A stretch of DNA of 64,000 nucleotides, from the NCBI GenBank assembly GCA_002633005.1, contig NMRA01000155.1, forward strand, positions 745,643-809,642. Reading direction: 5' to 3'. This DNA is from Phoronis australis. Lineage: Eukaryota; Animalia; Phoronida. Position 1 is the first letter of the stretch. Each line of letters opens with the position of its first letter. Under the pieces are notes generated by a model. It did not search any database. It was not told the DNA's origin and saw nothing but the letters and a program-made list of their open reading frames with translations. Of this stretch, positions 4,604-63,937 are shown piece after piece. Both the position numbers and the translations under genes were made by a program.

Positions 4604-7600
4604 GTGTTCCAGCCAGACGTTCGTAGTCATTATTTGATTCTTCTCGTCCTGCAGATGGAGTCACACATTATAAGGACAACAAATAGTAATTTCACGTGGT
4701 CATTAAGCAAACTAATGTGTTCAACATCTGAAATAAACAGACTTGTTTACAGCAAATAACACAGCATTAATTACAGCTGCACAACAGACATTTCACCCGT
4801 TTCTCACGTGGTCGCACCCAGACACAAAACCCGGGAAATGAGATGCACCGAAGACAGGCAAGTGCCCGGGGTTCCAATCTTTTTATTCCAATCGAATTCG
4901 AAAATGTTTTTGATGTTCTCCGCTCTAGATCAATACATGGTCAAGATAATTGCCTATAATTCTGTGCTCGAGTATATCATGGTTTACATGGATCATGTTG
5001 GAATGACTATTTTGTGCTTGGCGACCCAGTGCTTGAGTATGAACTCGAAATCTCGAGTTTCTTCTACTCAAAATCTCGAGTTTCTACTCTGTAGCTCGTT
5101 TTAGGGGTCATCGAGTGCATATTAGGATTAAGCGTTGATATTAGTAAATATTAATGTATTCGAGCACAAAACGATGGACAATTATCTGGATCTTGCGATA
5201 AAATAAAACACTGAGAAAACTGAGAAAATGTCAAAAATATTTTCGAGCTCTACTTCGAGTATGTGAACCCACTGCAGGCGTGCGCAGAGACGTCGCAAGA
5301 TATTACCGTGTATTGCAACGAAGCACGCGATGCAACATTAATTTCCTTCGCGAGATTCCTACGTCTATCGAACTCGCGAATTCCATCCCTCACCGATCAA
5401 TCATCATTGAAGTAAAGCCGCCATTTTATTTCGGTAGGATATCATGCATACCAGAGAAACTCTCGCCTTTCACTCGTGTGATTTTTCGTGAACTTGCCGG
5501 TATCTTGATTTTGGCGATTTTTTCGCGTCTACGGGACGCAAATTTGCCAGTCGGAAAAATAGACTTGGAGAATGAATGAGTGAATCGGCTAAGTGTCCTT
5601 CTTTGTCCGGTAAACATTTTTAATCAGTTTCACACACGACTGAGTCGGCAGTGTTCTATTATGAAACCATCCTCAACACTACTCTGTCACATACTCTAAA
5701 TCTGACGATCATGCATGCCCAGATCGCGGGCCGGAGTCAGGCGTACTTGTGTTTTTGCCGCGGTGGACGAACTGTGAAGTTTCGAGTATTTCTCACTGTT
5801 ACTAGAAAATTATGACTGGATCACAAACGTTGTCAATATGAAATTTCATCATTCCATATATAACGTTAGCCTCAGGTGGGTACGATAATCTGCCTAAATC
5901 TTGTATTAATTTTTGATATTGATTTAAATAATGTGCCCGCCTCGAGCTTGACTAATGACTTTATCAACTATTACGCATGAATAGCTGTCACAAAATCGCT
6001 TATGTCGTAATTAATTTCGGATGTCAGTGCACCTATATTGTTCCTTACAATTCATGTCACGCGTGGATCTTTTGAATAGCGTTTGTCAGTGGAGTTCCGA
6101 ATCCGGCGACGTTTCGGCAGTACCGTTAGCTTTACCGTCCGCCATCATGGATTCCGATGTATTTATACTTAACATAAACATATGTTGTTTATTTATAGGT
6201 GATTAGAGTTCACCTGTTCCATCCAGTCTTTTTCATAATGTATATCTGTATAGTATTTCCAGCAGCTAACGTATTATCAATTATATGCCTATGGCACTTT
6301 GTAACAACTTCTCTCCAAGCAGAGGTAGTCGAAAACGGATTGTCTACAAACTATAGGTAGCCGTCAAAATACGTTTGTCACAACGTTAAAGCTGCGTTCG
6401 CCCTGTTTAGGTGGCTAAAACGAAAAACGAATACCTTTTACTCTCATAAAATTGGTCTGGAAGTATTCCTTCCTGGGATTGTATTTGCGTTTCCAAGAAG
6501 AGCATCGACACCATCTGAGACTTAAGAAAAATTTACTGGGGTTGCCTAACTTTAAAATTGCTAATTCGAAAATGGCGCCTTGCCTGTAACTTGAGTTGCC
6601 GGCATGTTAGACATCCTAAAGACCAGATGAACGTGATTAATGTTGTAAAGCCCCAAAGGGATTTGATTGAGCATTCGCAATATTCACAGCTAAACAGGGC
6701 GAAATGTAATTTTAATTTATTTGCGGTTTTGGCAAGGCATTATCAAGAGATACCAACCCTTCAGTTGCATTGATTGTAAGAAGGGCGAATGTAAAATGTA
6801 AAATCAACTCAACACACTGCTGACTTTGGTTTTAACAAGACAGGTTCAGCTCCTTTTTAGTAACTCCGTTAAATGTTAGTAGTTCAAAAGGACTAATAAA
6901 ATTCCTTAAAATGCCTTGTTCAGTAACATCGACATTCCTCCAGATTGGAGCGTTCAAATATTCCGTAATTACTAAGAAGGAGTGTTCATGGATTGAATAT
7001 TAAAAAGAGTCTCTTATCAGTACAAATAGGCAGGGGGTTACATTCATCGCACACAAGTGTCGGTAACTTGAGCAATTCATTCCTATAGACAGAGAGAGAA
7101 CGGAAGATCTGTATCGATCAATAACGCATTGTGCATGCCTGTCTTTACGAACATCATGTTTATTTTCAAAGCCACGTGCATTTTGCGAAACAAGACATTT
7201 GTATCTACTTATTTCTTTGAAAACGGTATAGTATAGAGTATTTGAGATGTCCGCTGCAAAACTGCAGATGAAAGCAATAGGTTTTTCTGGAACGTTTCAC
7301 AACTACTAAATAAAACATACATATATTTATCAATTAGTGTCCCAAATGCGTGGAAATTCCAATAAAGCGAAACACGTCATCAAAAGAGAACACTGTAAGC
7401 TATTTGATGCCTGTCACACAAGGTGGAGGTAACGCCGCCAGATTTAGTGGGATCAGGGCCGGCTTTAGGCTCACTTTACTGAATTTAGGGTAACTAAATT
7501 TGCAGCGGTAGGCCTGCTCTATAAGGTAACTTAGTATTTCCGTTTGTGTTCTACTCACGATATCAATGAGCTGCGTCAACCGTAAGCCGAGCAAGACCAG

Positions 7601-7759
7601 CACAGCACCGTTATCAGGTGCCGGTCGAACATTCCTATTATAATTGTTCTGTTTCAGGAGGGTGTCGTACAGTCTTTTGGCGTCCGGATTGCAAACGACG
7701 CACTCCAAAGTGGCGAGCAGAGCCAGCAACGTTCCAATAAGAGCCTCGTGATACCTCAT
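4604..7759 (-). CDS. Nicotinic acetylcholine receptor subunit (Cys-loop channel), 5' part: coding exon 1 7759-7559, exon 2 4648-4604; gene continues beyond window start
   Basis: Exon 1 encodes a signal peptide plus NPDAKRLYDTLLKQNNYNRNVRP...LGLRLTQLIDI, then donor GTGAGT at 7558. The 45-nt exon 2 encodes DEKNQIMTTNVWLEH between ctgcAG and GTAAGT. Both junctions are phase 0, at the usual nAChR intron positions. NPDAKRLY is typical of invertebrate alpha-like subunits, but the vicinal CC loop is outside the window, so alpha versus non-alpha is not proven. Confidence 0.95.
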
Positions 7760-8085
7760 GTCTTCCTATCCAACATGCTACGTACAAGTCACAAAAAATA
7801 CCGACGTGTCTCCGTTTATGGCATTGATGTCAGATTTTCAGTCTATTTAATGTCCGCCAGGGTGCACCACTGTGTTGCGTTCCAGCGCCGAGAACGGTTA
7901 CCCTGGTGCGATGGTCGGCAGAGCGCGTGGATGGTTTCGCTCTTACATGAGTGTATATGAGTAGTCTTTCGTTGTCATAGTGACAGAAAAAATCAATTCC
8001 AAAAATGAAATCTATATAAACAGGAAAGTCGCTGGATCGTGAGCGATGGGACCACATCCGTACGTGTGCTTGTCAGTGACGGAAA
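7760..8085. promoter_or_regulatory. Putative bidirectional promoter / 5'UTR region shared by the nAChR and LamG-PAN genes
   Basis: Only 326 bp separate two divergent ATGs (7759 minus, 8086 plus), each opening a signal-peptide exon. Transcription start sites cannot be determined from sequence. Confidence 0.55.
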
Positions 8086-14000: not shown

Positions 14001-17000
14001 ATTACACAAGAGTAATCACTACAAGCCTGCTCGAACCCGCAATGTTCACAAAATCTACCCGGTGCTCACTGTCAGAGTATGAAAGTATGGTCAATCATGA
14101 ATTGAGTGATTCAACAGAGTGGTGAAATTGCTTTGATTCTAACTATGCCAATTGAGCCATAGTAGAATTTGTAACAAGTTCTTGACACTAAATATTTCTC
14201 TGTTAAGTTACATAGTAAGTGGTATGTACATATTGCACTCAACATTTGTACATTATTGCATGTTTTTGAACTTAAAATTTTTTTTTGCTATTTAGAAAAT
14301 CATGCAATAGAATAAACAGCGTTACTGTCAATCGGACCAAAGCTCAGCCAATGAAAAGACTCGTAACAAAACCCATGCGCTTTCATTACCACATTCTAGA
14401 CCACACGTAGAGACCGGACGGTTCCGTCCTATCATGGTTCATGACTGATCATAAAAAGGTGATGTAAGTTACAACAAGGCCTGGTCCTAACATCAAGGGT
14501 GCAGATTGGTTCCATCATGGCTACCGTCTTTAACACTTAATTCCACGTTGATGATTGCTCGCGGTAACGGCCTTAAGCTCACTCCGTGTGTTAGTCTATT
14601 CAGGACGCTCCCGGGCGCTGGTTCCCGTCCTACGTGCCTAGCCAGCACGCAGGTATCACGCAGTCGCACGCGCTTTAGCATTGATTGGTGTAACCTTGGC
14701 AGTCATTGGTTAGCTTTTCAACAACGTGAAAAAATGGCGGACTATGAACGTTTTTTAGCCTCAAGTGGCGCAGCAAATATATTTCGTTTCTCCAGTAATT
14801 TTTAATAGCCCGGTGCGTGCTTGAGCCACATCTGGCCCATTTAACCGGTGTGTTATTCACACTGTATCAATACAGGACATTATCGTAAAGAAAAGTCATC
14901 GACAGTAAAAAATGCACTCCGAAAAGGTGCAATCACAATTTCTGGGATTCAGATTTCCTGAACACAAATTTTAAGCACCGATTTGTCTGTACAACGGACA
15001 ACATTTACACAAGCTCCATCAGTCATGTCAGTTTGTTTGCGTAAAGCGCTGCTTGTTGAGAATTCGACCAGCCAATCAGAAACGCAGGTGTAAAAAATTT
15101 CCTGAGGAAAATTACGGGATACCTGCGTGCTGGCTACCGACCACCTAGCGGCACACAGGAACCAGCGAAGTCAGGACGTCACCTGTGGACACGTCATGTG
15201 ACCTAATCAATATACATGTAGGTAAGAACAGACTTCATACCAAACCGGGATTCCAGCCCGGGACCTTCTCTGTGGTGTTTTTTAAAAGAAACGACACCTA
15301 TCAGGCTAGACAATTCACATGCATAGAACATCATGGATTGAACATAAAAACCTCTAAAAATATGTCATTGAATTTTTTACGCAAAAATGTATCATATTCA
15401 CTACACCATATCTTATATGTCAATTGTCATTTTGTGTTTGATTTTACTTAATTTCTGTTTTTGTTGACAAAGGAAGTTATTACATCCGAAAATTTCAAAT
15501 TTCAGTTGATCCATTCTTGTTGTTTTATTTACCTATTTATATTCTACATTTCATGAAACAATAGTATCCTTGGGAGGATCTGGATTGCCTTATTTAGTTT
15601 CAGATATATTTTCTACGTTAAATGAAGTACAAATGCAAATAGCACCGGTTATTTACATTTAACTTACTGTCATTTAACTAAATGGACAACTGTTCACAAA
15701 TTGAAAAGTTGCATTAAATTTACAAATGGTTCACAATACTAAGATATGAATTCAATGGTGTTTGAATTTGTACTTGGGAACACAATGATTTCCATGCAGC
15801 ACGTGTGTGCTGGTTGAAGTGAAGGATTTAACTAGAACATTAGCTAAGTGTTTTTTGCATTTTTGTTGTAAATAATTCCACTGAAAATGTTTGTTTTGAA
15901 TGACTTAGTAACAATCCATGTCGTTACCAAGACTAGTGGACGAACACCCAAAAGCGCTGCACTTAACTTACACAGTAGGTAAATTTCAAGATTTCCGCAC
16001 AAAGACTATATGCTCACTTATGACTTGGTACTTGAGTTAACGCACTACGTTGTCTGCTCAGTCATGAAACTGAAGACATCTTTTACCAAAAGCAGCGCGA
16101 AAACGAAACATCATGTACTTTTGTATGGAACCTCATTTCTCGTGATAGGTAATTTGTCCTTATACAACAATCGGAGTTTAATCATGGCAAAATCACTGAA
16201 AGAAACTCGAGACAAAGCGCATTATACAAAGTCGAACGTGCGGATCGGGAAAAGTTTCCGAGAGGACAAGCAAAGCAGAGTTTTCAAGGCTTCGATGTAC
16301 TGCGTTCAACTTTATGACACAACCCTTTCTGTTGACGAAATACTAGAACAAGCTAACTTCTGTAAGAAAGGTAACTATCAGATTAATAAATTAAAATTGC
16401 TTTGAACCTACAGATTAATAAATAAATACTGCCGGTTGTCAAAAAAACAGATCCTGCAGTGGTTAATGATCTTGATTTGTTCACAAGAACTTGGCTAGAG
16501 CTGACAACTCGGTCATTGCTATGAACCCGAGGGTCATTTTTGATTCATGTTTGTGGCAACGCTATTATTTATTGTTTTAATAAGCATGGGTGCACCCAGG
16601 GGGGCTCGAAGGAGCCCCCCCTAATTTGGCGAACTGGGCAAAAAGGTCACCCTCAATGAAACAAAAAGTCCGAGCAAACGAGACCAAAGTCCACAAAGCC
16701 CATAGAAATTCTTCACGGATGCACAATTCGTACAGTAGGCCTGAACCTAGTGACCCCGTTTTTTTTTTGTCCTCTTGATTTTCCTCAGTAAAAAGTCCGC
16801 GTACCGAGAAATTCGAGCTCCCCTATATTTTAGTCTGGGTGCACGCATGATAAGAAACTTCCACACACAGTCGAAAATTTTCAAATTGAACAATCTGTTG
16901 TTTAAAATACAACATAAAACTCATATGTTTTATAAATTAATTGATGACATAAACAACGCTCCTTGCAAGGTTTTTTGGGCAAATTCTGTGGAACTCTCTT

Positions 17001-17564
17001 CTGTTCTACAGTTTCACACAATCAAGCTATAGATGACAATCGTCTGACCGTCACTGGGTTTCTCAAAGAGGATTTCAATCTCTTCGAGTATTCACTGGGG
17101 ATTTTTTTGGAAAAATATAATTTTCCTACAACGACGCACGTGCTTATTTGTATATGTGGTAGCTACGTGCCCCTGCGCTCGTACTCTCATAGACCTACCT
17201 GTTGCTGACTATTACTGTTTGAATGATGCGTGTCGTTATTTTGACAGTTTCTCAATGCCAACCGAAACTGAAGCTGGAGAAGTTCAACTATCTCAGGAAA
17301 ATGAACTCATGTCTGAAAGAACGCCATTTGCGCAACAGGTACATCGCGAGTTCTCTTAGTCATTGTGCCATGTTATGCTCACAAGAGTCCTATCCACCGT
17401 GCCTCACGTTCAACTACGTGTCACCAGAGAGAGCGTGTGAAACCAGTATTATGCCTGCCAATCAACTGCAAGATCATGACTTTGAGACTAGGAATGCCTG
17501 TCGGGCATATCAACTCTGGGATGGTTCAGATACCTGCCACTCACATTATGTACAGTGTCCTTAA
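8086..17564 (+). CDS. Secreted LamG/concanavalin-A-like (pentraxin-like) + C-terminal PAN/Apple domain protein, 364 aa; exons 8086-8170, 12956-13146, 13589-13868, 16149-16370, 17248-17564
   Basis: Exon 1 is a signal peptide, MTLFTLGWIFNVVLSVVLILSCIPYWCK, ending at G|GTAAGC. LamG motifs: PVGAWALDE..DLSGNCNHG..FSGNSSAFVEIP, SFTFMTWIK, RWFLLSVTYDSKTG-NLSLYNN, VRIG..FKASMYCVQLYDTTLS. PAN pattern: SLSHCAMLC..CLTFNY..ACE. Intron phases 1,0,1,1 all match and the total is 1095 nt. AATAAA at 17609. Confidence 0.88.
9520..9800. mobile_element. MITE, CATG-ended family, copy 1
   Basis: Similar to 16585-16849 over its full length; ends catgcacgc...gcgcgcatg; flanks GTAAG / GTAAC (near 5-bp TSD). Confidence 0.7.
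11908..12409. mobile_element. Cluster of GC-rich hAT-type MITE fragments
   Basis: Repeated ggcggattta-ggggg starts and a ggatccgcc end, like the TIRs of the 21820-24153 element. Confidence 0.5.
13477..13526. repeat. (TGCAA)10 microsatellite
   Basis: Perfect pentanucleotide run, in intron 2 of the LamG-PAN gene. Confidence 0.95.
14639..15136. mobile_element. MITE with 19-bp perfect TIR
   Basis: tagccagcacgcaggtatc at 14639 and gatacctgcgtgctggcta ending at 15136; non-coding. Confidence 0.75.
16585..16849. mobile_element. MITE, CATG-ended family, copy 2
   Basis: TIR catgggtgcacccag / ctgggtgcacgcatg, with a perfect 5-bp flanking repeat ATAAG (16580-16584, 16850-16854). Confidence 0.8.
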
Positions 17565-20086: not shown

Positions 20087-21819
20087 GTTGACTGACTTGT
20101 AAACAAAAGCAAACAACTACCAAACATATCACAACCGAGGTAGAACAATGACTAACTCGACAGTTCTCACAGTCAGACTATAATGAAAGGAAATTGGCGC
20201 GAAACTCTTGCCTCCCAAAACGTCACTTCCGGAGTAGAGGATGAGAAATTAATGAAATTACAAAAAGCTGTAATTAAGTGAAAAATGTGTCTGGGATAAT
20301 CAACGAACCTTATTTTTGCTAAAAGTGACATGAAAAAAGGTTGCCTTCGCCTTTAATAACCCCTGCCGTGACTGGTACCAGGCGTGAAATCACTTTTGTT
20401 ATGCAATTCGCTAACGGGTACATTTATGAACAACAATATGAAAACTTAGGTAATTTTATTTGCTCTGCACACTTTAACACTCTTTTTATTTGTCGTAAAG
20501 CCCCTCATTTACTATTTGTACGCGACAGGCTTTCTATAAAGTTTCTGCGCCAAGTCTCGCAAAAACATTGCAAGTACAAAGTAGTCATGATTATGTGAAA
20601 TACCTCAGTTAAAAGCAATGGCTGATAACTATATTAGAACAAACTTCTGAAAATAGTGGTAACATTTTGTTAATAGAATTCGCGTTTCAAGTTGGCATGC
20701 ATCTAGTACTTGCTATTCGTCGACGATAAAAAATCGAAATATCCTTCACTCAAATTATAAGTCTTAATTCAAATAATCACAATTCTCTTGTTAAATCATT
20801 CTTACATTTCAAAAATTGAAAATGTTAAAACAATCATGAAGCTCTACCATATTTCTGTGTCTCGTATTACGTGTATTTGTAAAAAATAAGCGATGAAAGT
20901 TGGCTGGTCTAGAAGCACGCGCCATCTGTCGGTTCGGGCTTTGCCGTTTCCACGTGTTTCCAGAAGGTCGTCTCTTCACAGAAATTATTACTGTCACCGC
21001 AGTCCATCAGATGCTGACTCTCTGCTTCCACGTCTGCCGGTTCAGAAAAAGGCACTCGACACTCATCGAAACCTAAATAAAAGTTGTATACCTGATCTTT
21101 CATATAACGCTTAACCTGAAAAGGGCGCCTTAGTTATCCTTTCAGCTTTCCTACCTTAATGTATCTTTTCTTACCACGGGACCCCGTCTCTCTCTCAGAG
21201 GGGAAGTTTCGGTGCAGAGGCGGATTTAGGGGGGCCCAGGGCCCCCCCCCNGAGTGTAGGGAAATGTTGAGTTTATTAATTAACCCCGGTAATTAAAATT
21301 ATACGGATGAAAAAAGATTTAACTGTGTGCAGTTGGGGGGCGCTCAAATCCAATTTCAAGTGTCAAATTCGGAACACGGCGCATTCGTAACGGTATAGGC
21401 TCTCCCGCGATATCTCAGGCGACCGGCAGTGGCGCTGCGCACTACGACTCCTTTTCCGTCGTCTGCTCCACTGTACAATGAAGGAAATTTACTTCATTTT
21501 TTAAAGAAAATGGAACCTGAGTGAGGATGTAAAAACAGAAGCTGCTGGTAAGATGTGAATTTTAATTGAAGCCTTAGTCAATCACTCAGAAACTCGCAAT
21601 ACTCTCTTTGCCAAACCTTATCTTAAGACGATTTACAAAGCAATCCCGTCATTATTGCCAACACGAAAAACGGATTTGGTCTTTTGGGCATTTGAAGACT
21701 ATTTTAAATACGACAAATTTGTTAAGTTAGAATTGATGGAACAAAATATAAAACGTGTAATAAGCCTTACAAAAAGAAGTAGGTTTCGCGCGCAAACGCT
21801 GTGGACCATTAACAAGTAG

Positions 21820-24184: not shown

Positions 24185-24479
24185 AATCGTGGTGGTGTAT
24201 TGGTAACGCACGCGCGCTCTATCCGCCAGGTCGTGAGTTTGAGTCTTAGGTACTTGCAGTTTTTCCTGTTTGACACGTTCTCCGTGTTTTTTTTGCCTTT
24301 TTTTCTTGGATAATACTTCAGGAATCAAGGAAAATGCTTGATTTTTAGAGGTAAAAAAACCCTCCTGACCTCGCCCCATTCGGTGCTATGCGCATCTACA
24401 ATCGTGGTTCAGTTTGCGCAAATGCTTACAGCCGGACAAAATGTTGGGCCCCCCTTGTGATATCCTAGATCCGCTACTG
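24185..24479 (+). mobile_element. tRNA-headed interspersed repeat ending in a hAT-like TIR (second copy at 62873-63162)
   Basis: A-box-like tggtgtattgg and B-box-like gagtttgagtc, then about 250 bp closely similar to 62873-63162, ending gatccgctactg. Confidence 0.65.
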
Positions 24480-28521: not shown

Positions 28522-31500
28522 GCTGCCGCTGCCGCTCTTGCTGCTGCGGCAACGGTAAGAACAAACTAAACCCATGCTTTCCATACAAGTTTGTGCCTGT
28601 GCCACACTCAACTTTGGATAAAAGATGTCAAATAAAACAACAAAACGGCTTATTACCGGACCATATACTCGGGATAAACATTCAAATCGTGGCGTGCACA
28701 CTGATCTCCACAGACATGGATTTCTGCGTGTCGATTGTCCGCCTTTCACTCTGCCAATCTCCTCCGGAGGTGGCGATGAGTTAGACAGTATTCCAAAAAG
28801 AAAACACGACGATCACGTCAACAACATAATTGTTTGTCACTGTTAAGACCGTGTAAGATAGTTCGATAAAGGCAGCGCCACCATGGGGTAACTCTTCGCG
28901 CATAGTGCTCTGCTGATAGTTCTCATTAACCTTTTGCAGACTGTACGTTTGTCTTCGAGGTACACTACTTACAGGCCACATTCGAATAATCGACTCTGTA
29001 CAATACAGTAAAAACTGACGATATGGTGTTTATGTACATGTATTATCTATAGCCTTTTGAAAACGCAAAACAAGCAAGCTAGTCAATTCAGCACGTTTCC
29101 AAATACAGTGTAAGTAGTCGATACAGTAAGAGAACTGACATTCAGTTTTCACGAAGCCGACTTTGTGCTTGGCACCCGGGGCGCGGCTACCATTAGTCAC
29201 AACGAGGCACGTGTAAAATGTTTTCATTGGTCGAAGCATTGGTTTTGTTTTCAGTAGGAAACGCAACAAATGGAAGTAAGTAGATGTTAGCAAGTAAATA
29301 AAGGCTACCTATATGGTAAATGCAGCTCGAGTTTCCACGCGCGTTGGTCGATGCGACAGCTTTGTGGCGATGGTTGACAACTCGTATCGTCTTGTCTAAC
29401 GTCATTTCCACCGATATGTCGTACTTCATGATCACCGTCAGTAGTCCATTTGGCGAAACGTAAATGTAGGGATGGCTTTGCGGAAAAGACATGACGTATC
29501 CCATCGACGGCTGTGGCATGGGTGCCAGAATTCTGGGAGAGTTTGCCGTCAACAGGCCGTGCGAACCTTGAGCTAAAAGAGCATGCTGTTGGCTGGTCAA
29601 TTGATTGGGGAGTTGAGTCCAGCTGGACACTTCAGTAGCACCATTCTGAGAATATGAGCCTTGGGGTGGTTGCGGCACAAACATGTTGAACCGACGATTG
29701 ACCACGCGGTCAAAATTGCTAAGCCCAGAAAATTTTGTCTGTGTGTCGAAGAAGGGAGAGCTTGGTGTTGGACTTGAAAACATCCCTGCGTAGTCTGTGG
29801 GTGTGGCTAGCGAGAACGGAGAGGGCACTCCTGGCGGAATGAAAGAGTAACCGTTCAGAGGAGGCACCGGGCCACCGATAACGTAAGGTCCTGCTGGGAA
29901 CGGGGTACAAGAAGTCTCCAGAGACCTTTGGGATTGTTGCTTGCTAAAAGTTGGCCACTCAGGTACAAGCTGATCCTTTGGACTGTCGTCAGGTCTCCTG
30001 TTGTTCATGAATCCGAAGATACTCGACATTGGTGTAGGAAATAGTTCCGAAAACGGTAGCGGCTCGAAAGACACCGCCTCCCATTCCTCATTAATCTCAG
30101 TCTCCACCTTCTGCGCACTTTTGTCGTCGTCAGATCGAGGCTCTGTCATAATTATTTGGCCTTCAGTTTGCGTGTTCGCTGTTCGTGAGGTTGAAGAGTC
30201 ATCCTGACGAAGGTCTAACTGTATCCTCTTTTCAAATTCAAAAGATTGACCTGAATTCTGTTTGGTATCTGTGTCAGCGGTTAGTTCGCGAGATTGAAAT
30301 GGCTTACTGTGAACTATTCTTGGTTGTTGGAATAACACAAAATCACCGGGCTGAGTATCATCAGACCAGTCTCGAACTCGACGCGGGTTACTCTGTGGTG
30401 ATGCCTCTGTCTCCTTGCACGTACCCATGTATCTTAAAGCAAAAACACCGTCGTTGGTACTTCCTACTCTGTCTGACAACTCAGTTTTATCACTGATGCT
30501 TTCAAAAATATGTAATGTCATTTTTCGTTAGACCAATTAGACAAAGTCCAATCTACTCCACACACTGACGCAGTGAAATGGCCTATGCATTTCAAAAACG
30601 GTCCTTTTATTCATAGCTACGCTTATAATGTTAAAGCGTCATTAAACCTGTGCTTCAGTCACCGTTATACAATTGGTATTGTTTTTTCCGTACTCAGTCT
30701 GGAAGTTATCTTTGGGTCACGTAATATGAATCTTGTTAGCTTGGTCTGAAGAAATAATGAATTGCTAGTCCTGAAATCACCTCCAATAAGGAGCATGTGG
30801 AGACCAACTTTAAGGCGGTGAGCCTAAATCAAACTTTTTTTACATAAGGCACGAGTTCAATGCCGCTTTAAAGTCCCACCTGCGTCGTCATTGAAAACCA
30901 CTGTAAAGTCTGGTTCATGTTTCGAGTGGAAACACTTATTTTTATTTTTAATGGGGCGGTACGTCAGCTTTTTTAAAATTCCACATGACGAAATCATGGA
31001 CTAACTGTAATGGAATCATTTATAGCTTAAACGGGGAGATTTCACATATCAAAGTGAACAATTCCAGTTGCAAATCTTGATGTCGTTTACGTGAGCATGT
31101 AAAACAGAAGATTACGATTATTTTCAGCACTGCATGAAGAATCCTAAACATTTGCGCAAGGCCCATGGTTTTATGATCTTCAACTGTCCATTAGGCAAAA
31201 ACTTAAGTTTTAGGTCCATAAGTAGATTGGGGAAAACACAACCAAACGTAAAAAAAAGCCTGCCAAACGTATTGAGTACTCTGCGAACATTTCTGCCTTC
31301 GAAAACTGCGGTTTTCTCCACTCGCTGCGTCATAGACACTCCTGTGGGGTTTGGCTCTTACCTACATGCTGTGTCACTGATAGCTCTTCTGTCCAAGTCG
31401 AGGTCAAGCTGTTCTCGTGGTTCCACGAGAGATTTTGTTTCCGGCAAGTAGACGAGATCCATGCAGTTGACGCTGCCACCAGATGTCTCTGAGCCCGTTG

Positions 31501-50589: not shown

Positions 50590-51065
50590 NNNNNNNNNNN
50601 NNNNNNNNNNNNNNNNNNNNNNNNNNNNNNNNNNNNNNNNNNNNNNNNNNNNNNNNNNNNNNNNNNNNNNNNNNNNNNNNNNNNNNNNNNNNNNNNNNNN
50701 NNNNNNNNNNNNNNNNNNNNNNNNNNNNNNNNNNNNNNNNNNNNNNNNNNNNNNNNNNNNNNNNNNNNNNNNNNNNNNNNNNNNNNNNNNNNNNNNNNNN
50801 NNNNNNNNNNNNNNNNNNNNNNNNNNNNNNNNNNNNNNNNNNNNNNNNNNNNNNNNNNNNNNNNNNNNNNNNNNNNNNNNNNNNNNNNNNNNNNNNNNNN
50901 NNNNNNNNNNNNNNNNNNNNNNNNNNNNNNNNNNNNNNNNNNNNNNNNNNNNNNNNNNNNNNNNNNNNNNNNNNNNNNNNNNNNNNNNNNNNNNNNNNNN
51001 NNNNNNNNNNNNNNNNNNNNNNNNNNNNNNNNNNNNNNNNNNNNNNNNNNNNNNNNNNNNNNNNN
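50590..51065. other. Assembly gap (N run)
   Basis: 476 N, preceded by a poly-C run. Confidence 1.
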
Positions 51066-53500: not shown

Positions 53501-56164
53501 AATTATATGTGCAGGGACCTATTTCTTCGGGTGAACTTGGTCCTAACCCAATTCTGTTCTATGGGAATTCAATTAGAAGCCAAAAAGTGTGAGAGATCGA
53601 CCGCCCGAGATTTTAGTACGCGATGTACCATTTTACTTTAGCTATAAGCACTTGCATGAGTAAAGTTCGACCCTCAACTGAACATTGGTATAGCAAATAA
53701 CCAAGAGACATGATTAAAAGACACGCGTAAATGCATATGCATGGCACCGTTTGGATGCCTGTCATGAACCAAACAAGACATTTCTATTTAGACTTTTTGT
53801 CCGGCTACGGGATACTTTGCTTTGAGGTATAATAGTTTTACTCTTAAAACATTTTGAATTTGGTCCTAGAGTTTTAACCTTGAACTTGAAATTGTTTTGG
53901 AAAAGTTCGTAATGGTTTCAGTCATATACCAGTTAACCGACTGAATACCTCACCGAGTCCTAAATCTTCTAATGGTCTTTGCTAGTCCATGTAATTTTAC
54001 AAAATCCGCCTATTAATTCCCGAGTGGCCAAATCCTCCTTCAAAACCCGGCAATCTGAAAGTTACAATTACTAACCAATGCAATGTCTTGGGGGCAACTA
54101 GTTGAAAAGTGCTACGTTTTTGGACGCCATGCTTGAACTCTAAAATTACACCAAGGGCAAAGAGCGCATGCGACTAGTATGTCAGCGTACCCGGAAGTCG
54201 TGTGCTTCACGAAAGAGCAGGAGAAGTCCAGGGTCACTGGAATCGAGGATTTTTGCCAAAATGAAAGCAAAAGAAAGCAGTTCACGTAACTGAATAAAAT
54301 CATTTTTGAGAAAAAGCTTTGAACAACTGTTGAAGCATTTTGGGATATAAGTGTGTGTAATTTTATCCATTTTATTAATGCTTCATATGTCGTCGATTAT
54401 GTCACTTATAACCATAGTTCATAGACAACAGATTCGCAACTCCGACTTTTTCATTTGAGAGAAATTGTCAAAAGAGGTACCACTTTCCAGTTAATGAGCA
54501 GACGACATATTTGTCGGAAGTAAAACCGTGACTACCGTGACTCAAACAAGGCGCCGTTAGCGAACTGTCTCTTCTCGGCATGGATACTGTTGGTCGCGCT
54601 TTGTGTGTACGATCACAGATTTTGTCCATTGAGGACATACAGGCTTGGCGGTCCCGGTTCTATGCCGATCCAGTCTATGCTTTAACGCACAAACAAGCCG
54701 GCTGTGCGGGTATATGTTGTGCGACGTGTCGTAAGATTTTACGTGCATACTGCGGGCTCGCAAAAAGTGTAAATATTATGTTGAGACGCGCCGCAAGTAT
54801 TGTTCTGAAATGAAACACCCCTTTTCCATAGTTGCCCGAAACACATTTTTCTTTTTTTTTGCTGTGGCAGATTGTCTCTCACATTTACGCTTTCGCGTAT
54901 ATAGTGTATCTGTACATGAGCTCTGTTACTTGTCATTTTTCATGACGTGTGTCTTTACATCTCAACTACACATTTGCTGCCCACTGTAAACGAGCTTTGG
55001 AACCGCTTCCCAGTTGGCGCACATAAATATGATTTGAGTGTTACAGTATATTCGTTATGACGTCTCTACTTGCTTCTCATTTTTATATTAAGGTCGCGTC
55101 AGTGCACCAATCTGTGTGTTTATCTATTGGCCTATGTTATATTAGGTCAAGTGGTTTCTGTGTCTTACTTTTGTTTTCGCATTGGATGGTACTTTGCGAC
55201 TCCTGTTTTTACTATGTCCTCAACCCTCCCTTACCTGTCATCTTTATTTTTACGTTATTCTCAGTATTCATTTTCTCTACTTTTGGTTAATCCAGTAAAT
55301 GCACGTCTACTGGCAGATTGTTGGTTAACGCATTTAAATGACATCTTTAGTGTGTTAAGCAGTCTCAAACTAGTTCATGCCTATGTGTACAGATTGGTTC
55401 AAAACGCGCTGATCTACAGATACAAATAGACTCCTACAGTACTCATCACCCGGGATTCAACACAACCAACGTCATGATAAAAAGCAACAGAAATACTTCA
55501 TCGCATATATTTCAGTCGTTTAGCTTTGTCATTGCCCAAACTAAGCCTCCTTTGCAAACGACGTCATCGCTGCGAATGTGAACACATCAAGCACCTAAAC
55601 CAAACGTAATCAACACCCTACACCTAACTCGAAATGATAAATAATGTGAACTTAAATACACAGTCCATAACAGATCAACAGTATTGCCCGGTTGTTTTCT
55701 AGGCTTTAGGTACGGGCTGTTTCCATAGACCCTATTTGGTACATATATAAGAGATGCGGTATGATAGGTTGCTCTAAACTTATGCAGATACTAATTCGTC
55801 GTTGTCAGCACGAAGTTCGCGGACTTCAGTAACAGTATGCATATGAGCTAGACAATTTTTGTACTCACTAGTTTCCCTAGGCCTGAAATAGTGTATTTTT
55901 CAAAGAAAGTTGTTTACTCAGGTGTTTTGCCTACAGGCGCACGCACCAAAGTTTCGGTTGTAGGCACAGGTGGACCTCACGCATTGTCCTCGGCAAAAGC
56001 GCATAATCGTGCCCGTGCGAAACATTCTTACGCGACATTGTTTGACAGTCCATTTCCCAGATTAAATTATATACGATCAGTTCTATTAGTGTCCGTTGTA
56101 AATATTTATGTACCTAGTAGCAATAGTAGGTCCAGTGAAACAGAAATGTAGCTTTTTACTCGGA

Positions 56165-56802
56165 CTATTCGACAACAGTCTTCGCTATAATCTGTTTTTC
56201 GTCTCTCATCATGGTGTAATGGTCACCATCAACGTCAACAACTCGCACTGGTTTAGAGCACAAACGTTGGGTGCCATAGTCGCGCTCTTGTTTTTGAAGC
56301 TCAGCAAGAGTTTCAGATAGCGGTCCTTCTGTTAGTATATCAGTTGCAAGTACCAGCTTGACGTCTCCGTCGTAAATGGTGGAAGGAACGTAGGAGGCGT
56401 AAATATTCAGAGTTTCTCGAAACAGTGACAGTCCAACCTTCAAATCGTCTTCGTTCAAGCCTTTTTCATTCCAAGTGTTTTGAAGCCATTTCTCGTGAGC
56501 CTCCATCTGCTTTTCGGAGCTCTTCAAGATTCTCGTGTATGCTTTTGCGATTAAATCCGGACTTCCGTCAAGAATAACTAGCGTCTCCGGTCTCCGGGCA
56601 ATCTTTTGAAGCTGCAGCGCAATTTCAAAAGCTATAGCCCCGCCTGACGAATATCCAACTAGAACATACGGGGTTTCAGTGTAAAAGAAGTCCAACTGCT
56701 TCATTCGCTCTACATACAGCGAGGCAAGTTGAGGAATTGACTCGAATGGAGTACTTCCAAGCAGAAAACGGAAAGCAAACACCGGGTGCTTCTTCAGTTG
56801 GC
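56165..56802 (-). CDS. NRPS terminal exon: thioesterase domain (animal FAS-TE-like)
   Basis: Acceptor tcttccAG at 56803 is phase 1, matching the donor at 57474. GYSSGG nucleophile elbow, LDGSP and GDH give the Ser-Asp-His triad. Stop TAG at 56165-56167. Confidence 0.93.
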
Positions 56803-57474
56803 CTGGAAGACACGTAATTGCGTTAAAGAGGTACACATACATCGACAAAACATCTAAAATGCATAGGCACAAACACGTGTCACTGTTCAAAGGGGGCATG
56901 AATTATTGTCCAAAAGAACTTCGAAAAATTTTGGCGGTCACCAATCAAAACACGAATTCGAAATTTTAAGTAAGGCTTGATTAATTTTGTGCACCATGGT
57001 ATAGCATTTTACCGTGACAATGTGCTCGTTATATATGGAGTACACTTTGGAACGACGTCATATATCATGTAGCTTCCCTGTGTTCGATGGCTGTAACACG
57101 TTCGAGAACGTAGCAGTTTTAAATTACGAATATCTAATCACTCGAAATAACTGTTGTTCATGTATTTAGATCGTATTAATTGATATTTGAATTCACGTGC
57201 TAATTTTAGGGCAGTGGCTCTGAAGGGAAAGTCATATGAATATTCTGATGTTATTTGTACTAAAAAATATCATCAATTACCTCAAGACATATTGTAGCGC
57301 ACAATCAAGTGTACCCCTGACCATTACATAACAAGCTAGGCCTATTCAACATTAATAAAGTATAGTAACTGGCGTTACCGCCGTATTTGCGAAATTAAAT
57401 GACAGATTAAACTTATATAAGACTAACTAAAACATTGGCTTTCCCGTTAAAAGACAAAAGTGCACTATACTTAC

Positions 57475-60400
57475 CAACAACGTAAGAAAACGACGATACC
57501 CCACCGTCACTGGCGTGAATGTAGATGATAGGTTTTTTGCCGGGATCGCCGCTGCTTAAACAAACCAAGATGTCGCCCTCGTCCGCCTTTAATTCGGCAA
57601 CTGCGGCTATTTCTGCTAGTGTTTCGAGCTGCACTACATCCGACAGGCTAAACTGTAGCCCCCGCTTTTCAGCCATAGATACCAAGCTAATTGCTGATAT
57701 TGAGGTGCCACCGAGATCAAAGTAAGAATGGTCAAGTTTTATGTCGCCTGAGTTCATTTTCAGGAGTTTTGCCCACATGTCACGAAGCATCAATTCCTTG
57801 TCGGTCAACATTTCCATGACGTCACTGTTACCTTGCCACGATTGTTTGGATTCCGTTTGCCAGACCTCCGACGGTACTTCGGTTACTTCTTTAAGAACGT
57901 TTTTACTGACAACGGTGAAGTGAACTGGTAGAACACACACTGGTGCATGTGCCCTTCCAAGTATCGATTTGAGATCCTGCAATGTCTCAGAGGGCATGGG
58001 ATACTCGGAGGTAATGAAGGCAAATACACCTTCATTAGTTTCTGAAATAAAACAGCCTCGCAACCCTTCAATCCCATCGAGTTCCTCTGGTATTGAGTTG
58101 ACTTCGTGATCCAAAACGATTGTTACGTCACCGTTAATCTGCGATGCTGCAAGAACACCAGTGTAAACCACGTCATCATCCTTGTTGATTTGTATATGCA
58201 ACTTCCCGATAACACCGTTTGGACAAGATCGACCATGTTGATCTTTAATGCAGAGCGAGTATGTCACGTCGTCAGTTAGTGGACTTCCGACAATGGTATG
58301 TTTAGCGTCAATCTCGGCATGAATCACTGGTTTTGAGCTATCAGAAAGGAGTATCTCATCTAAAAGAATGTTCAAGTGAGCCAAAATCTGGTGGGCTAAT
58401 TCATTGCTGACCCTATTTGCGTCGTACATGAACTTAGCCATGAGATATTCGCCGTCGTCACCGAAAAGAACTCCCAAAGGCAAATCGATGTCTTCATATC
58501 CATGGATTGCAGAAAATTCGATTTCTTGGTCTTTGAAGTTTTCAAACGCTGGGTAATTTTCGTATGTAACCAGAGTATCAAGCAGATTCTGATTTCTTGG
58601 AAGACCGCTCCATTTCCGTATGTCAGCTAAATTGCTATAATCATAAGCCATTATTGCAGCTTGATTTTCGTGGATGGTCTTCAGCCATTCTATAATAGTT
58701 ACTCTTTCGTCAGAAGGCAAAGTTATGCGAAGTGGCAAGGTGTTGAGCAGTAGACCAACTACATCTTCGACTCCTTCAATGTCAGCACTTCGCGACGCGA
58801 CTACAACAGCCACGACTACGTCTTTCCTATGGCTACTGCAATACCGATCCAAAACTAATGCCCACGCGCCATACATAACAGAGGTCGTCGTTAAACTGTT
58901 TTCCCTTGCAAATTTCTTCAGAACTTCCAGCTTTGTAGAAAATGTACGCAACACCTGCTTGGTGTCACTTTCAGAGGATCCCTGATTTGTCGACAACGTC
59001 AAGATTCGCATTGGTTTCAGATTTGACAAGTACTGTGACCAGAAAGTTTGTGCAGCGGACATGTCACGGGATTTGCAATTTTCCACAAAAAAACGAAACG
59101 AAGTGGCGGGTGGGAGATCGTGAGCGTGATAAACTTTTAAAACGTCTCTGAGGACGAGCGGAGAAGACCATCCATCAACAACTGAATGATGGAAGGTCCA
59201 AATAAACTTGTGGATGAACTCGCTTGTTTTCATTAGAGCAAATCTAATTAGAATCCCGTTTGCACTGAATCCCTTCGCCCTATCTAAGTTTACAAAACCA
59301 CTCTCCGTTTCTTCAGAATCAATCCAGGATCCCACTTCCCATTGAGGATCAGACTGGCGTCTTACTATTTGAATCAAAGAATGGCTTCCGGAATCAATAA
59401 TAAAGCTCGTTCGCAAAGCTGTGTGACGTTTAATAACGATACTCCAGGCATATTTGAATCTTTCAACATCAAGCCTTCCTGTTATGTTTAAACATAATTG
59501 CACTAAATAGGACGACTTGTCTTGAAGTAAAGAAAATATTAACCCTTCTTGCAGAGGTGTACACGCGTAAATATCTTCCACGTCGTCCAAACTGATATGC
59601 GCTACTTTCAATGTATCTTCCATTGTCTTCACTTTGTTATCATCAGTTTTCAAAGGCATATCAGAAATTGTGCAGCTAAGCTGAAGTGACTCCAAGATAT
59701 TTTCTGTTACTTTCTTCCAGGATTGTGCCAATGATTGAATGGTTTTAGTCTTGTGAAGGTCTTTGCTAAAAATGAAGACGGCTTGAAGGCGTCCCTCAGA
59801 AATATAACACTCAATAGCCAACATGTGAGTGATCTTTTCGTACTTACACTGGTTGTTGTAAGTGTAATTGCCGTTTGTGCAAACATCCCACAGGCTATTC
59901 TCCTTAGAGAACATCGTGGCACTCCCGTGGTAATTGAACACAACGTCACTGTGTTGGTTAAACCTTGGATCATTGTCCTTTTTCAAGTACCTCATAGCGC
60001 CGTACGGCATACCGTTATTAGGAATTCTTTGAAGTCGTCGTTTTATTTCTTCAAGGTGTTCCAGTAAGTTGTCTGTATGATTTTTCAAAGCCAATGTGAC
60101 AGGAAACATAGCAGTGAACCAACCGACAGTTCGAGAAAGATCGAGTTTGTCAGTCCAAGGTTCTCTCCCGTGCCATTCTTGCTCAACAGTCAACGATGTT
60201 TCTCCGGTCCACTCATAGTAAGCAACAATTAAAGCAGTCAAAAGAACGTCGTTAATCGAAGGGCTATCGTTCCCATGAGTCCTTCTAAGACTCAGTAATT
60301 TGTTTGTTGTATTTTTGTCTAGCTCTATTGATTCAAGCACACGACTTGCGCTTTCGATGCTTTCCATGCTTTTCGAAAAATCGGTTTTTAAAGGACTGCT

Positions 60401-62875
60401 TTGTTCCAATGATGGCCAATCATCTGCATTGAGGCTTGGAGTATAGTCGGAAATCAGAAGCTCTGACCATTCTTTGAATGAAGAAGTTTTTGGTTGCAGG
60501 GAGCTTCCGCGACATAGTGTTTCGAGATCTTCCAGAATGATTTGCCAAGAAACAAGGTCCACAGCCAAGTGATGGATAGTTATGAACAGATACTGCCGCT
60601 GGCCAACAATGTCAAATAGACCAATCGCCAGAAGGGGACCAGATGTTAAATCCAATGAATTTTGAAGTTTCCCAAGCTCATCGTCCAGTCGGTCTTCATC
60701 AATTTTCGTGTGAATCAACTTTGGCGTTCGAGCTTTGTCACATGGTTGGATTTCCTGATTCGCACTCCCACCTTCTTTAAAAGTGTATGAAGCGCGCAAA
60801 ATATCGTGATGGGAGATAAGTTCATGAATGGCATTTTGGAGGATTATTGGGTTAACGTTCAGCAATGGTCTTAGTAGTAGTGACTGGTTGAAGCAATTGC
60901 GATTACGAAGGTTTAAGTTGACAAACCACTCTTGAATAGGGGTGAAGGGCACATTGCCCGATATCTCCTTGTTGTTCTTCTTGATGGTAGATTTTTCAAC
61001 ACCGACAAACTTTGCAAAATGTGCAAGCTGAGACAGGCTTCTGGACTGGAATACTTGTTGTACTGTAAACCGAAGTCTGCGTTTTCTTCCCTGAGAAAAT
61101 ACTCTCATGGCAGAAATAGAATCACCACCCAGAAAAAAGAATGAGTCGCTTGACTTTATTTTTGATGGTTCGATTTGTAGAACCTCACTCCATATTTCGA
61201 TCAAAATTTCTTCTTTTTTAGTCAGTATCTCGATGTCACTAACACTGGGTTCAGGCAAGCTTTTATAGTCAATCTTTTCTGAGCTTGACATAGGAAATTC
61301 TGACAAAGGAACTATCACTGATGGAACCATATAGCGAGGTAGTTTGTCTTGTAGATTTCTCTTCAGTTGAAAAACGCCAGCACTTCCTATGTCTGGTGTT
61401 ACGTATCCCACAAGAACGTCATTTTTCACGACAGATGCTGCGTTTGAAATTCCATCCTGCATCCTCATAACATGCTCGACTTCATCGAGTTCTACACGGA
61501 AAGCTCTTAATTTAACTTGCCTATCTTTGCGACCTGCCACTATAATTTCTCCATTTTCAGTCCAAGAACCTAAATCACCCGAATTGTAAAGTTTTCCCTC
61601 GCCAAAGGGGTTGTCGATGAATTTCTGTTGTGTCAAATCCGGCCGCTTTACATATCCTCTAGCAACCCCATTTCCGCCAAGGTACATTGTACCTTTCACT
61701 CCGATGGGGACTGGCCTTAAGTTGTTATCTAAAATGTACACTGAGCAGTTGGTAATAGGTTTTCCAACAGTAACTTTGGAGTTTCCATTTGTCAGCCCCC
61801 AAGTACACACAATCGTTATTTCTGACGGACCATATTCATTGTAGAGCTCTACGTGCTTCTCCCACTTATTGACTACAGACTCTGGGAGTATTTCGCCGGC
61901 GACTATCACCCTTTTGATATTTGGAAAATCACTAGGTTCCAGAGAGGCAAGCACAGAGGGCGACATCAACGCTACGTCAACTTTCTTCAAAGTATGAAGA
62001 AAGTTCTTTTCTCGTTGAACCAGTGTCGCTCCACTGGTTAAAGTCATTAGCATCTCTTGATAAGCGACATCAAACATTATGTTGAAAAAGTGTGTTACTC
62101 TTGTTCCATGAGTGATACCGTACTTTTTGCATGATCTAGCAATCAGACATTCACAGCCCCAATGATTAATCATAACCCCTTTGGGTTTCCCTGTTGTTCC
62201 TGAAGTGTATACAATATATGCCAGATGTCTTGCATCAGAAACGTTTTCCAAATTGGCGTAGTCATTATCATCAAATGCATCACTTTCATAGCGTGTAGTA
62301 TACTTTTGTAAATCAACCAGCACAATTTCCCCTTGAAAGGAATCGAGAACTCCTGTTGATTTTACTTTGCTTGTGGTAACAACTACTTTACAACCGGCGT
62401 CCTCGAGCATCAAATCAACACGACTTTTCGGAACAGTCGCTTCAATTGAAAGGACTGCGCCGCCAGATTTCATAATTCCTAAGACAGAAGTAACGAATTC
62501 TAAGTTTCTGTCAAATACAGCGCCGACTATAGCGTCTGGAACGATCCCAAAAGAACGCAATATCCGTGCCAATTTGTTACAGGCTGCGTTTAAGCTTCTG
62601 TACGTTATGTGCCTTTCAATTTCTTCAACTGCAATACTGTCTGGTACAAGCTCTGCTTGTTGTTCAAATTGCTGGTGCATGCGAAGCTTGCAAAAATCTC
62701 CCGTCCTGTTAAACGATTTAATAAGGGCTGACTGACATGGTGGTAGCAAGTCTAAAGAGCTAAAAGGCGTGTCTTGGTTTGATGTTAGCACATCAAACAA
62801 GTGTAACAAATTGTGGCTCATTCTTTGTATGGTAGAACGGTTGAATATATCAGTGTTGTATACGAAATAAACCCG
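57475..62875 (-). CDS. Nonribosomal peptide synthetase, main 5.4-kb exon: [C end]-A-T-E-C-(vestigial A)-T-TE start
   Basis: C-end: YNTDIFNRSTIQRM. A: YTSGTTGKPKG, FDV, NEYGPSE, SGDLG, GRKDRQVKLR, KIDY. T: FFFLGGDSI. E: PIQEWF, HHLAVDLVSW, EWHGRE, RTVGWFT, FNYHG. C: EDIYACTPLQEG, HHSVVDGWS, YENYP. T: YFDLGGTSI. TE start: PIIYIHASDGG. Donor G|GTAAGT at 57474. The frame is open 18 codons upstream of the ORF-track Met. Confidence 0.96.
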
Positions 62876-63162
62876 CTAGGACGTGAGTTCGAGTCTTCGA
62901 CAGTTGCATTTTCTTCCTGTTTGACACGTTCTCCGTGTTTTTTTTGCCTTTTTTTCTTGGATAATACTTCAGGAATCAAGGAAAATGCTTGATTTTTAGA
63001 GGTAAAAACAGAAAAATTTCCTGGGCGGGAGGGGGCAAACCGCCCTCCCGACCTCCCCCCATTCGGTGCTATGCGCATCTACAATCGTGGTTCAGTTTGC
63101 GCAAATGCTTCCAGCCGGACAAAATGTTGGCCCCCCCTTGTGATATCCTAGATCCAACACTG
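62873..63162 (+). mobile_element. 5'-truncated copy of the tRNA-headed/hAT-TIR repeat; left part of the insertion in the NRPS
   Basis: Closely similar to 24222-24479; B-box-like gagttcgagtc; ends gatccaacactg. Confidence 0.75.
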
Positions 63163-63937
63163 TGTTAATGCTTGTATTAATGAGCTTAACAAGCTTGCAA
63201 TTGAAAGAACCGTCAATATACGCTGGGTCAGGGCCCATGTGGGAATTGATGGTAATGAGAATGCAGACAGACTCGCAAAGATAGGAGCAAGCGTTCTGCA
63301 TTTTGTGCCTGAACCTGCTATCCCGGTATCTTACGGATGTTGCAGGATGAGTATACGCAACTGGGTACATACACAGTCATCTTACGGATGTTGCAGGATG
63401 AGTATACGCAACTGGGTACATACCCAGTCAGCAGCCCAGTGGGCATCACTTAACTTCTGCAGAGAGACCAAGGAGAATTTTCCCAACGTGATTGAACCAA
63501 AGGTTCGAAAAACTATCTGAGTCTAGATAGATTGGGTATAAGACACGTCAAATTTTGACGGGCCACTGCAACCTAGCCCGACACAGACATATTACTGGGC
63601 ATATGGGGAGTCCTGTTTGTTTTGAGTGTGGTTTTGACGTAGAATCTCCTAAATACGTGGTAGAGTCTTGCCCAGCTTTTTATAGGCTAAGGAGCAACCT
63701 ATTGGATGGCACTGTTACATGCCTAAAACATATAGTGCATGGCAACAAATGGAAACGTCTGTCCGTTTTCCTAAAGGAGACTGGCAGACTTGAAAACTTT
63801 CTTCACGGGGGAGCCCTAATTGAGCTCTCGTGCTTTTGCTCAGGTGTTTTGTGCAATGGGCCAAACCATGAGGCCTGCACACGTCTGATGCAAATGACAT
63901 CAGACCACCTGCACTGTTTTTTTGTTTTTTTAACCCT
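63163..63937 (+). mobile_element. 3' fragment of an RNase H-containing non-LTR retrotransposon (I/Loa-like)
   Basis: WVRAHVGIDGNENADRLAK (RNase H); LTGHCNLARH..CFECG..CPA (C-terminal zinc-knuckle region); FLKETGRL. It has two frameshifts and a 51-nt tandem duplication. Confidence 0.88.

Follow-up and report, generated by a model that had tools for sequence, protein, structure and literature searches.

We infer that the terminal thioesterase (TE) domain of a nonribosomal peptide synthetase (NRPS) of Phoronis australis probably arrived together with the adenylation (A), epimerisation (E) and condensation (C) domains of the enzyme, from a lineage common to early-diverging fungi. This origin is favoured because the TE and the A domain both have their best match in one protein, the NRPS ORX93212.1 of Basidiobolus meristosporus, and because trees pair the two TEs outside the fatty acid synthase (FAS) clade. 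In the original prediction, the gene had been regarded as a microbial-type core fused to a TE borrowed from the host FAS or from an animal polyketide synthase (PKS).

Organisation and transcription of the NRPS gene

The gene lies on the minus strand of the window, i.e. the whole stretch of 64,000 nucleotides analysed, and comprises an open frame of 1820 codons (57413-62875) and one of 245 codons (56165-56902). Joining the GT at 57474 to the AG at 56803 yielded 2012 codons without a stop. Pfam searches of the frames returned three condensation-type stretches, one A domain, two carriers (T) and one thioesterase, and the domains were found in the order C-tail, A, T, E, C, A-remnant, T, TE. The hallmarks of a modular NRPS were present, i.e. 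C, A and T domains whose catalytic motifs are preserved, together with a domain for release; module 2 had no whole A domain. The features of the locus are as follows.

62869..63165, plus strand: high-copy repeat where C1 should continue (read depth jumps and becomes two-stranded)
62740..62868, minus strand: C1 tail, i.e. the upstream condensation domain, the remainder of which lies outside the window (tblastn of microbial NRPSs)
61256..62692, minus strand: A1, adenylation domain, intact, predicted pocket code DVQLIAEIVK, proline-like (Pfam AMP-binding E 7.9e-66; TIGR01733 above cut-off)
61016..61219, minus strand: T1, carrier, GGDS serine intact (Pfam PP-binding in two stretches; sequence)
59651..60958, minus strand: E, epimerisation domain, HHLAVDLVSW (sequence motifs; tree with other E-type domains)
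58331..59584, minus strand: C2, condensation domain after E, HHSVVDGWS (Pfam Condensation, best stretch 1100-1509)
57806..58330, minus strand: A-domain remnant of about 175 aa, predicted inactive (A-domain profile match)
57602..57787, minus strand: T2, carrier of NRPS type, GGTS serine intact (Pfam PP-binding 1697-1758)
57475..57574, minus strand: first part of the TE, with the H-x-S-D-G-G motif (sequence, alignment)
56803..57474, minus strand: TE intron of 672 nt, GT..AG, phase 1, spliced (skipped by RNA reads and a contig)
56165..56802, minus strand: second TE exon with stop codon and short lid (Pfam Thioesterase E 4.1e-19; model pLDDT 92)
55243..56164, minus strand: 3′ untranslated region (stranded RNA depth and one X5 contig)

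By its motifs, C2 is presumably of the D-donor type. Within the remnant, the A-domain profile matched 37 residues with 7.9 bits, compared with at most 4.8 bits in 500 shuffles. The predicted catalytic triad of the TE consists of Ser (56648-56650), Asp (56567-56569) and His (56219-56221); these residues (S51, D78 and H194) were nearly invariant across 54 rows. Two features had been missed at first reading, namely that the A domain of the second module is only a remnant, and that the long frame opens within a condensation domain, so that only part of the gene is present in the window.

Splicing of the TE intron was observed in 17 reads of RNA run X6, in 10 reads of X7 and in one X5 contig, and in no read of X8, which barely covers the gene. 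Stranded RNA depth over the gene was about 5-45-fold in X6 and X7, as determined from 18-19% of each run, and almost nil in X8. No intron joint within the 5.4-kb core was listed from the RNA reads, in agreement with the earlier claim that the only clear intron sits in the TE. A minor joint (two reads of X6 and three of X7) connected a GT donor at 57012, inside the TE intron, to the same acceptor (56801-57012), possibly as a result of alternative or stepwise splicing. The intron lent no support to a FAS origin. In four vertebrate-type FASN fragments, the exon seemed to start about 16 codons beyond the site of the TE intron, in the downstream direction, and a fragment close to bee FASN was unbroken across its position, the boundaries in both cases being deduced from protein ends. 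As the boundaries in these five fragments do not match, the intron is perhaps not shared with FASN genes; we interpret it as a gain within the animal lineage.

The window is animal DNA, carrying short exons that match a ligand-gated ion channel (E 1.1e-4) and laminin G and PAN domains. At 7560-7760 (minus strand), an exon that encodes a signal peptide followed by the beginning of the ligand-binding domain of a Cys-loop receptor ends at a GT donor. The laminin G and PAN matches at 15983-16405 and 17223-17564 (plus strand) were weak (E 0.001 each), and these stretches are likely exons of one extracellular protein. For a 444-codon open frame at 29193-30527 (minus strand), which is of low complexity and has a section of greater order towards its end, Pfam gave no match. 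The assembly contains a gap of 476 N at 50590-51065 and a single N at each of positions 21251, 33590 and 46796.

Relationships of the thioesterase domain

The TE has a type I TE fold with a Ser-Asp-His triad and is closest to FASN among solved structures. Four TE segments, which had been quoted as collinear with the human FASN TE, all lie in 56165-56802 (minus strand) and indeed aligned in order. When the PDB (177,635 sequences) was searched with the TE sequence, mammalian FASN accounted for the top 10 of 46 matches (E 6.5e-11). Structural comparisons were made with a model (pLDDT 92) that was built on an alignment with both FASN and NRPS TEs and in which the first TE strands are missing; here six human FASN TE entries led with Z 16.8-19.4, the highest-scoring NRPS entry reaching 16.1, and the closest solved structure was human FASN (PDB 4z49, 1xkt, 2px6; Z 19.4, rmsd 2.9, 198 aligned). 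Foldseek TM-scores of 0.59-0.69 for FASN and up to 0.65 for NRPS TEs showed no separation. The likeness to FASN is real and more than chance. It is not specific to the Phoronis TE, because the TE of the Basidiobolus NRPS gives the same top PDB matches, FASN being its top 10 of 34 with better E-values.

The alpha/beta hydrolase fold and the Ser-Asp-His spacing are shared with the TEs of animal type I FAS and of AFPKs. Unlike the animal FAS TE, to which it is 24-27% identical, the Phoronis TE follows an NRPS carrier, lies outside the sampled FAS clade and has a lid that falls short of the FAS median by about 35 residues. The lid measured 66 residues in the Phoronis TE and 58 in the Basidiobolus TE, compared with 90-148 in all 22 FAS-like rows; lids of at most 70 residues were also found in 10 of 176 other TEs. 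The H-x-SDGG motif was present in only two of 217 rows, i.e. in the Phoronis and Basidiobolus TEs. Among 325 matches to T2, from a searched set that included FAS proteins, the best 22 contained no FAS carrier.

In a search of 1.84 billion proteins (representatives), the best of 951 matches to the TE was the Basidiobolus meristosporus NRPS ORX93212.1 (P0125; C-A-T-TE), the alignment being a single segment that spans residues 5-209 (E 2.6e-15). Compared with 265 TE domains, the spliced TE scored 94.2 bits with Basidiobolus and 78.3 with the best FAS; the respective Smith-Waterman scores were 273 and 227. Plain identities over 245 were 66-68 for Basidiobolus and 67-71 for the best FAS rows, and the counts of privately shared residues were similar, i.e. 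raw residue counts do not discriminate the Basidiobolus TE from FAS rows. A tally of 18 residues private with Basidiobolus versus 2 with FAS was dropped, as it set one row against a group majority and symmetric controls erased the gap.

The Phoronis and Basidiobolus TEs were recovered as a pair in all four trees, with support of 88 (217 rows), 99/92 (54 rows), 97/85 (43 rows, mixture model, including the fragment P0149) and 87 (57 rows, with the lid columns dropped and vertebrate-type fragments added). In the same order, the pair was sister to the FAS-like clade with 90, 90/94, 84/48 and 91, and in all four trees the Phoronis TE fell outside the sampled FAS/AFPK TE clade. All rows had been gathered by likeness to the query, making the sample biased, and the FAS-like rows had been chosen by similarity to bee FASN; names confirm bee, tick, beetle and mussel sequences as well as four entries labelled 'fatty acid synthase' by JGI, and neither the FASN of the host nor complete FASN TEs of vertebrates formed part of the sample. 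From the 217-row tree, 19 of 235 TE domains outside 200-330 aa had been dropped, and the three smaller trees were hand-picked subsets. The branches of both the Phoronis and the Basidiobolus TE were long. The mixture-model tree also placed a TE copy of the Diacronema algal PKS P0144 with the FAS and query group at 98/89.

Regrafting of the TE on 104 branches of a backbone tree, which had been built with the query TE included, favoured the position beside the Basidiobolus TE (p-AU 0.975, weight 0.84). Two adjacent stems were retained (p-AU 0.18, and 0.20 for the FAS stem). Inside FAS, 37 of the 38 places were rejected, the exception beside bee FASN being marginal (p-AU 0.055), and rejection extended to all 63 placements among 32 microbial or other rows. 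A free search under the constraint that FAS and the query form one group, to the exclusion of the fungal TE, was 7.9 log units worse and was not rejected (p-AU 0.369).

The Basidiobolus TE was the sole fungal representative of its type detected. Word-seeded searches gave weak blanks, with one bacterial-type NRPS among 1284 candidates for the Phoronis TE, and for the Basidiobolus TE itself plus two weak matches among 731. Neither GTDB genomes (7 loci) nor metagenomes (26 loci) held a near-full-length TE match above 31%, and the neighbours of the TE in the ESM Atlas, where only clusters of at least 50 members were searched, were bacterial clusters. A fragment of 142 aa on an ENA contig of 3.17 Mb (P0149), which is 36% identical to the second half of the TE, probably represents a TE of this type from a further genome. 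Algal KS-carrier proteins with at least three TE copies (P0144, P0127 and P0275; Diacronema, Picocystis) were also noted.

Kinship of the core and origin of the thioesterase

Although ORX93212.1 had been retrieved by its TE alone, its A domain ranked first of 365 matches to A1. The protein is the best match for both the TE (33%) and the A domain (41%), and shares with the Phoronis TE the short lid, the H-x-SDGG motif and FASN as top PDB matches; unlike the Phoronis NRPS, it has one module (C-A-T-TE), without E and without a second C-T. Its gene (338397) is listed by Tabima et al. (PMC7466969) as a candidate transfer from delta-proteobacteria. A1 grouped with 10 of 11 sampled fungal A domains at 100/99 and shared a deletion of about 10 residues with fungal A domains. 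The tree did not resolve the Basidiobolus A domain as its sister, and fungal monophyly was not rejected for the A domain. In quick trees with 28 other rows as contrast, E grouped with nine fungal rows and C2 with eight (SH-aLRT 99 each), and each was sister to all sampled fungal rows. A search with the core returned Dispira first, five other early-diverging fungi and many bacteria. The A, E and C2 domains grouped (99-100) with NRPSs of Dispira, Tieghemiomyces, Quaeritorhiza, Polyrhizophydium, Calcarisporiella and Powellomyces. Early-diverging fungal NRPSs were about 28-36% identical to the Phoronis core; apart from that of Basidiobolus, none showed this TE, several being partial and one ending in a reductase. 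GC3 values of 0.41 for the core and 0.46 for the TE exon were too close to tell origins.

The core may have come by transfer from an unsampled fungus or by inheritance from a shared ancestor; the two are not distinguished, because the core-domain trees are unrooted, the eukaryote branches are long and the contrast rows are without Dikarya, algae or amoebae. For the TE, the likeness to FASN is likely explained by a sister relationship between its lineage and the animal FAS TE. One half of the original prediction stood, in that the TE adjoins animal FAS TEs and is placed away from bacterial ones. Its other half, the borrowing from host FAS, became the less likely reading, since the TE grouped with good support with a fungal NRPS TE (99/92 and 97/85) and outside FAS/AFPK.

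A broader scenario, which is possible and put forward only tentatively, would make the gene a relic of an NRPS of the animal-fungal ancestor, from whose lineage the animal FAS took its TE. It fits the position of E and C2 as sisters to all sampled fungal rows, the fungal monophyly that was not rejected for A, the sister relationship of the TE pair and the FAS TEs, and the fragment P0149 with a TE of the same type. With the pair standing as sister group of the animal FAS TE, FAS may have borrowed its TE from this NRPS lineage.

The opposite direction, in which an animal FAS or a PKS resembling it (of the stem or of the host) supplied the TE of the NRPS and the lid was then shortened, is unlikely and, judging from the trees, less likely than arrival with the NRPS. 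FASN tops both the sequence and the fold searches of the PDB, neither the FAS-stem placement (p-AU 0.20) nor the constraint joining FAS and query (0.369) was rejected, some FAS rows match the fungal TE in identity counts, and the sole intron seen is in the TE. However, 37 of 38 places inside FAS were rejected, the lid and the motif ahead of the first helix are un-FAS-like, and the exon starts deduced for four vertebrate-type FASN fragments lie about 16 codons further on, the bee-FASN-like fragment being unbroken. The Basidiobolus match would moreover be convergence or a later animal-to-fungus transfer, i.e. a coincidence or a second transfer is needed to account for the best TE match also bearing the best A match.

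It is improbable that the TE is simply one of bacterial NRPS type that evolves fast and has been drawn towards FAS and Basidiobolus by long-branch attraction. All identities are only about 25-33%, the support joining the pair to FAS drops to 84/48 under the mixture model, where P0144 also enters the group (98/89), and the ESM Atlas neighbours (clusters of at least 50 members) are bacterial, but all 63 placements among microbial rows were rejected and the 7 GTDB and 26 metagenome loci gave no near-full-length match above 31%.

State of the gene copy, proposed working and setting

Similarity to microbial NRPSs ended at 62866-62875, inside the condensation domain (tblastn), and with 37 queries no further NRPS sequence was detected in the window beyond this point. 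At 62868, three X6 reads, 12 X7 reads and one X1 DNA contig carried on with other letters, and the 30 continuing letters, judged by eye, were in frame and fitted the end of a C domain. Because reads and the DNA contig continue in frame, the gene extends further than is seen in the window, whose copy is interrupted or misjoined; an intron at 62876 was ruled out by the same continuation. The repeat at 62869, a second copy of which (84% identical) lies at 24223-24472, either was inserted into this copy or results from a join made during assembly. It had no credible match in Rfam and looked tRNA-like by eye. Nearby, a tandem duplication of about 45-50 bases was seen at 63298-63388, which some RNA reads skipped (joint 63327-63379), and an RNase H fragment (E 2e-08) lies amid high-copy repeats at 63152-63520 (plus strand), likely a retroelement remnant. 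Coding differences between reads and window were silent in 30 of 65 cases and none of the 65 created a stop, the sites being the best supported among those listed (26 from 40 of 506 and 39 from 40 of 84). That the copy in the window is a dead or misassembled allele making nothing is very improbable: its 5′ part is replaced by the repeat and the RNA reads, mostly 90-99% alike, may stem from other alleles or paralogues, but 2012 codons run without a stop, 30 of the 65 differences are silent and none of them gives a stop, other RNA and DNA reads carry on in frame, and the question bears on the copy, not on the origin of the TE.

The working of the enzyme can be proposed from its domains. Pocket positions of A1 were set on an alignment with LgrA, using the GrsA numbering. 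For A domains of eukaryotes, pocket codes predict the substrate less reliably. The A1 code DVQLIAEIVK matched 7 of 10 places of the proline code DVQFIAHVXK, as given in Table 2 of PMC2866473, and a proline-like amino acid is the predicted substrate. A1 would activate this amino acid and attach it to T1, C1 would join it to the chain supplied by upstream modules outside the window, E would convert the T1-bound residue to the D form, and C2 would pass the chain on to T2. Since module 2 is without a working A domain, with only an A trace between C2 and T2, T2 may be loaded by A1 or another A domain, or may act as a relay. Fungal synthetases of diketopiperazines, GliP for example, contain a relay carrier. 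As the last step, the Ser-Asp-His TE would free a short peptide, either by hydrolysis or by ring closure, and by inference its short lid argues against a palmitate-type pocket. The suggestion of a possibly acylated product found no evidence in the window, which contains no acyl-loading domain.

Animal NRPSs are known but mostly unexplained. NRPS clusters in phoronids, echinoderms, molluscs, lancelets, nematodes, rotifers and springtails are reported in the survey of Suring et al. 2023 (PMC10531068), where, as here, the NRPS lies within an animal genome. Its main trees are built on A domains with animal outgroups and, as far as these trees go, draw no link to early-diverging fungi or to a FAS TE. 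The same source describes in C. elegans the opposite mix, with PKS domains from animal FAS and a TE grouping with bacteria. Within the literature searched, which left most subscription papers and bioRxiv supplements outside, no link of an animal NRPS TE with the FAS TE or with early-diverging fungi was found. The Phoronis NRPS is transcribed and spliced, has an E domain and an odd last module, and shows a domain-by-domain tie to early-diverging fungi. It also calls for caution, as a best match to FASN is no proof of host origin when a fungal NRPS TE gives the same match. Its TE marks a small eukaryotic lineage that adjoins the animal FAS TE and is the closest sampled relative of it. Because the history of FAS has been traced mainly via the KS domain (PMC10764717), this TE lineage offers a way to test the origin of the FAS release domain.
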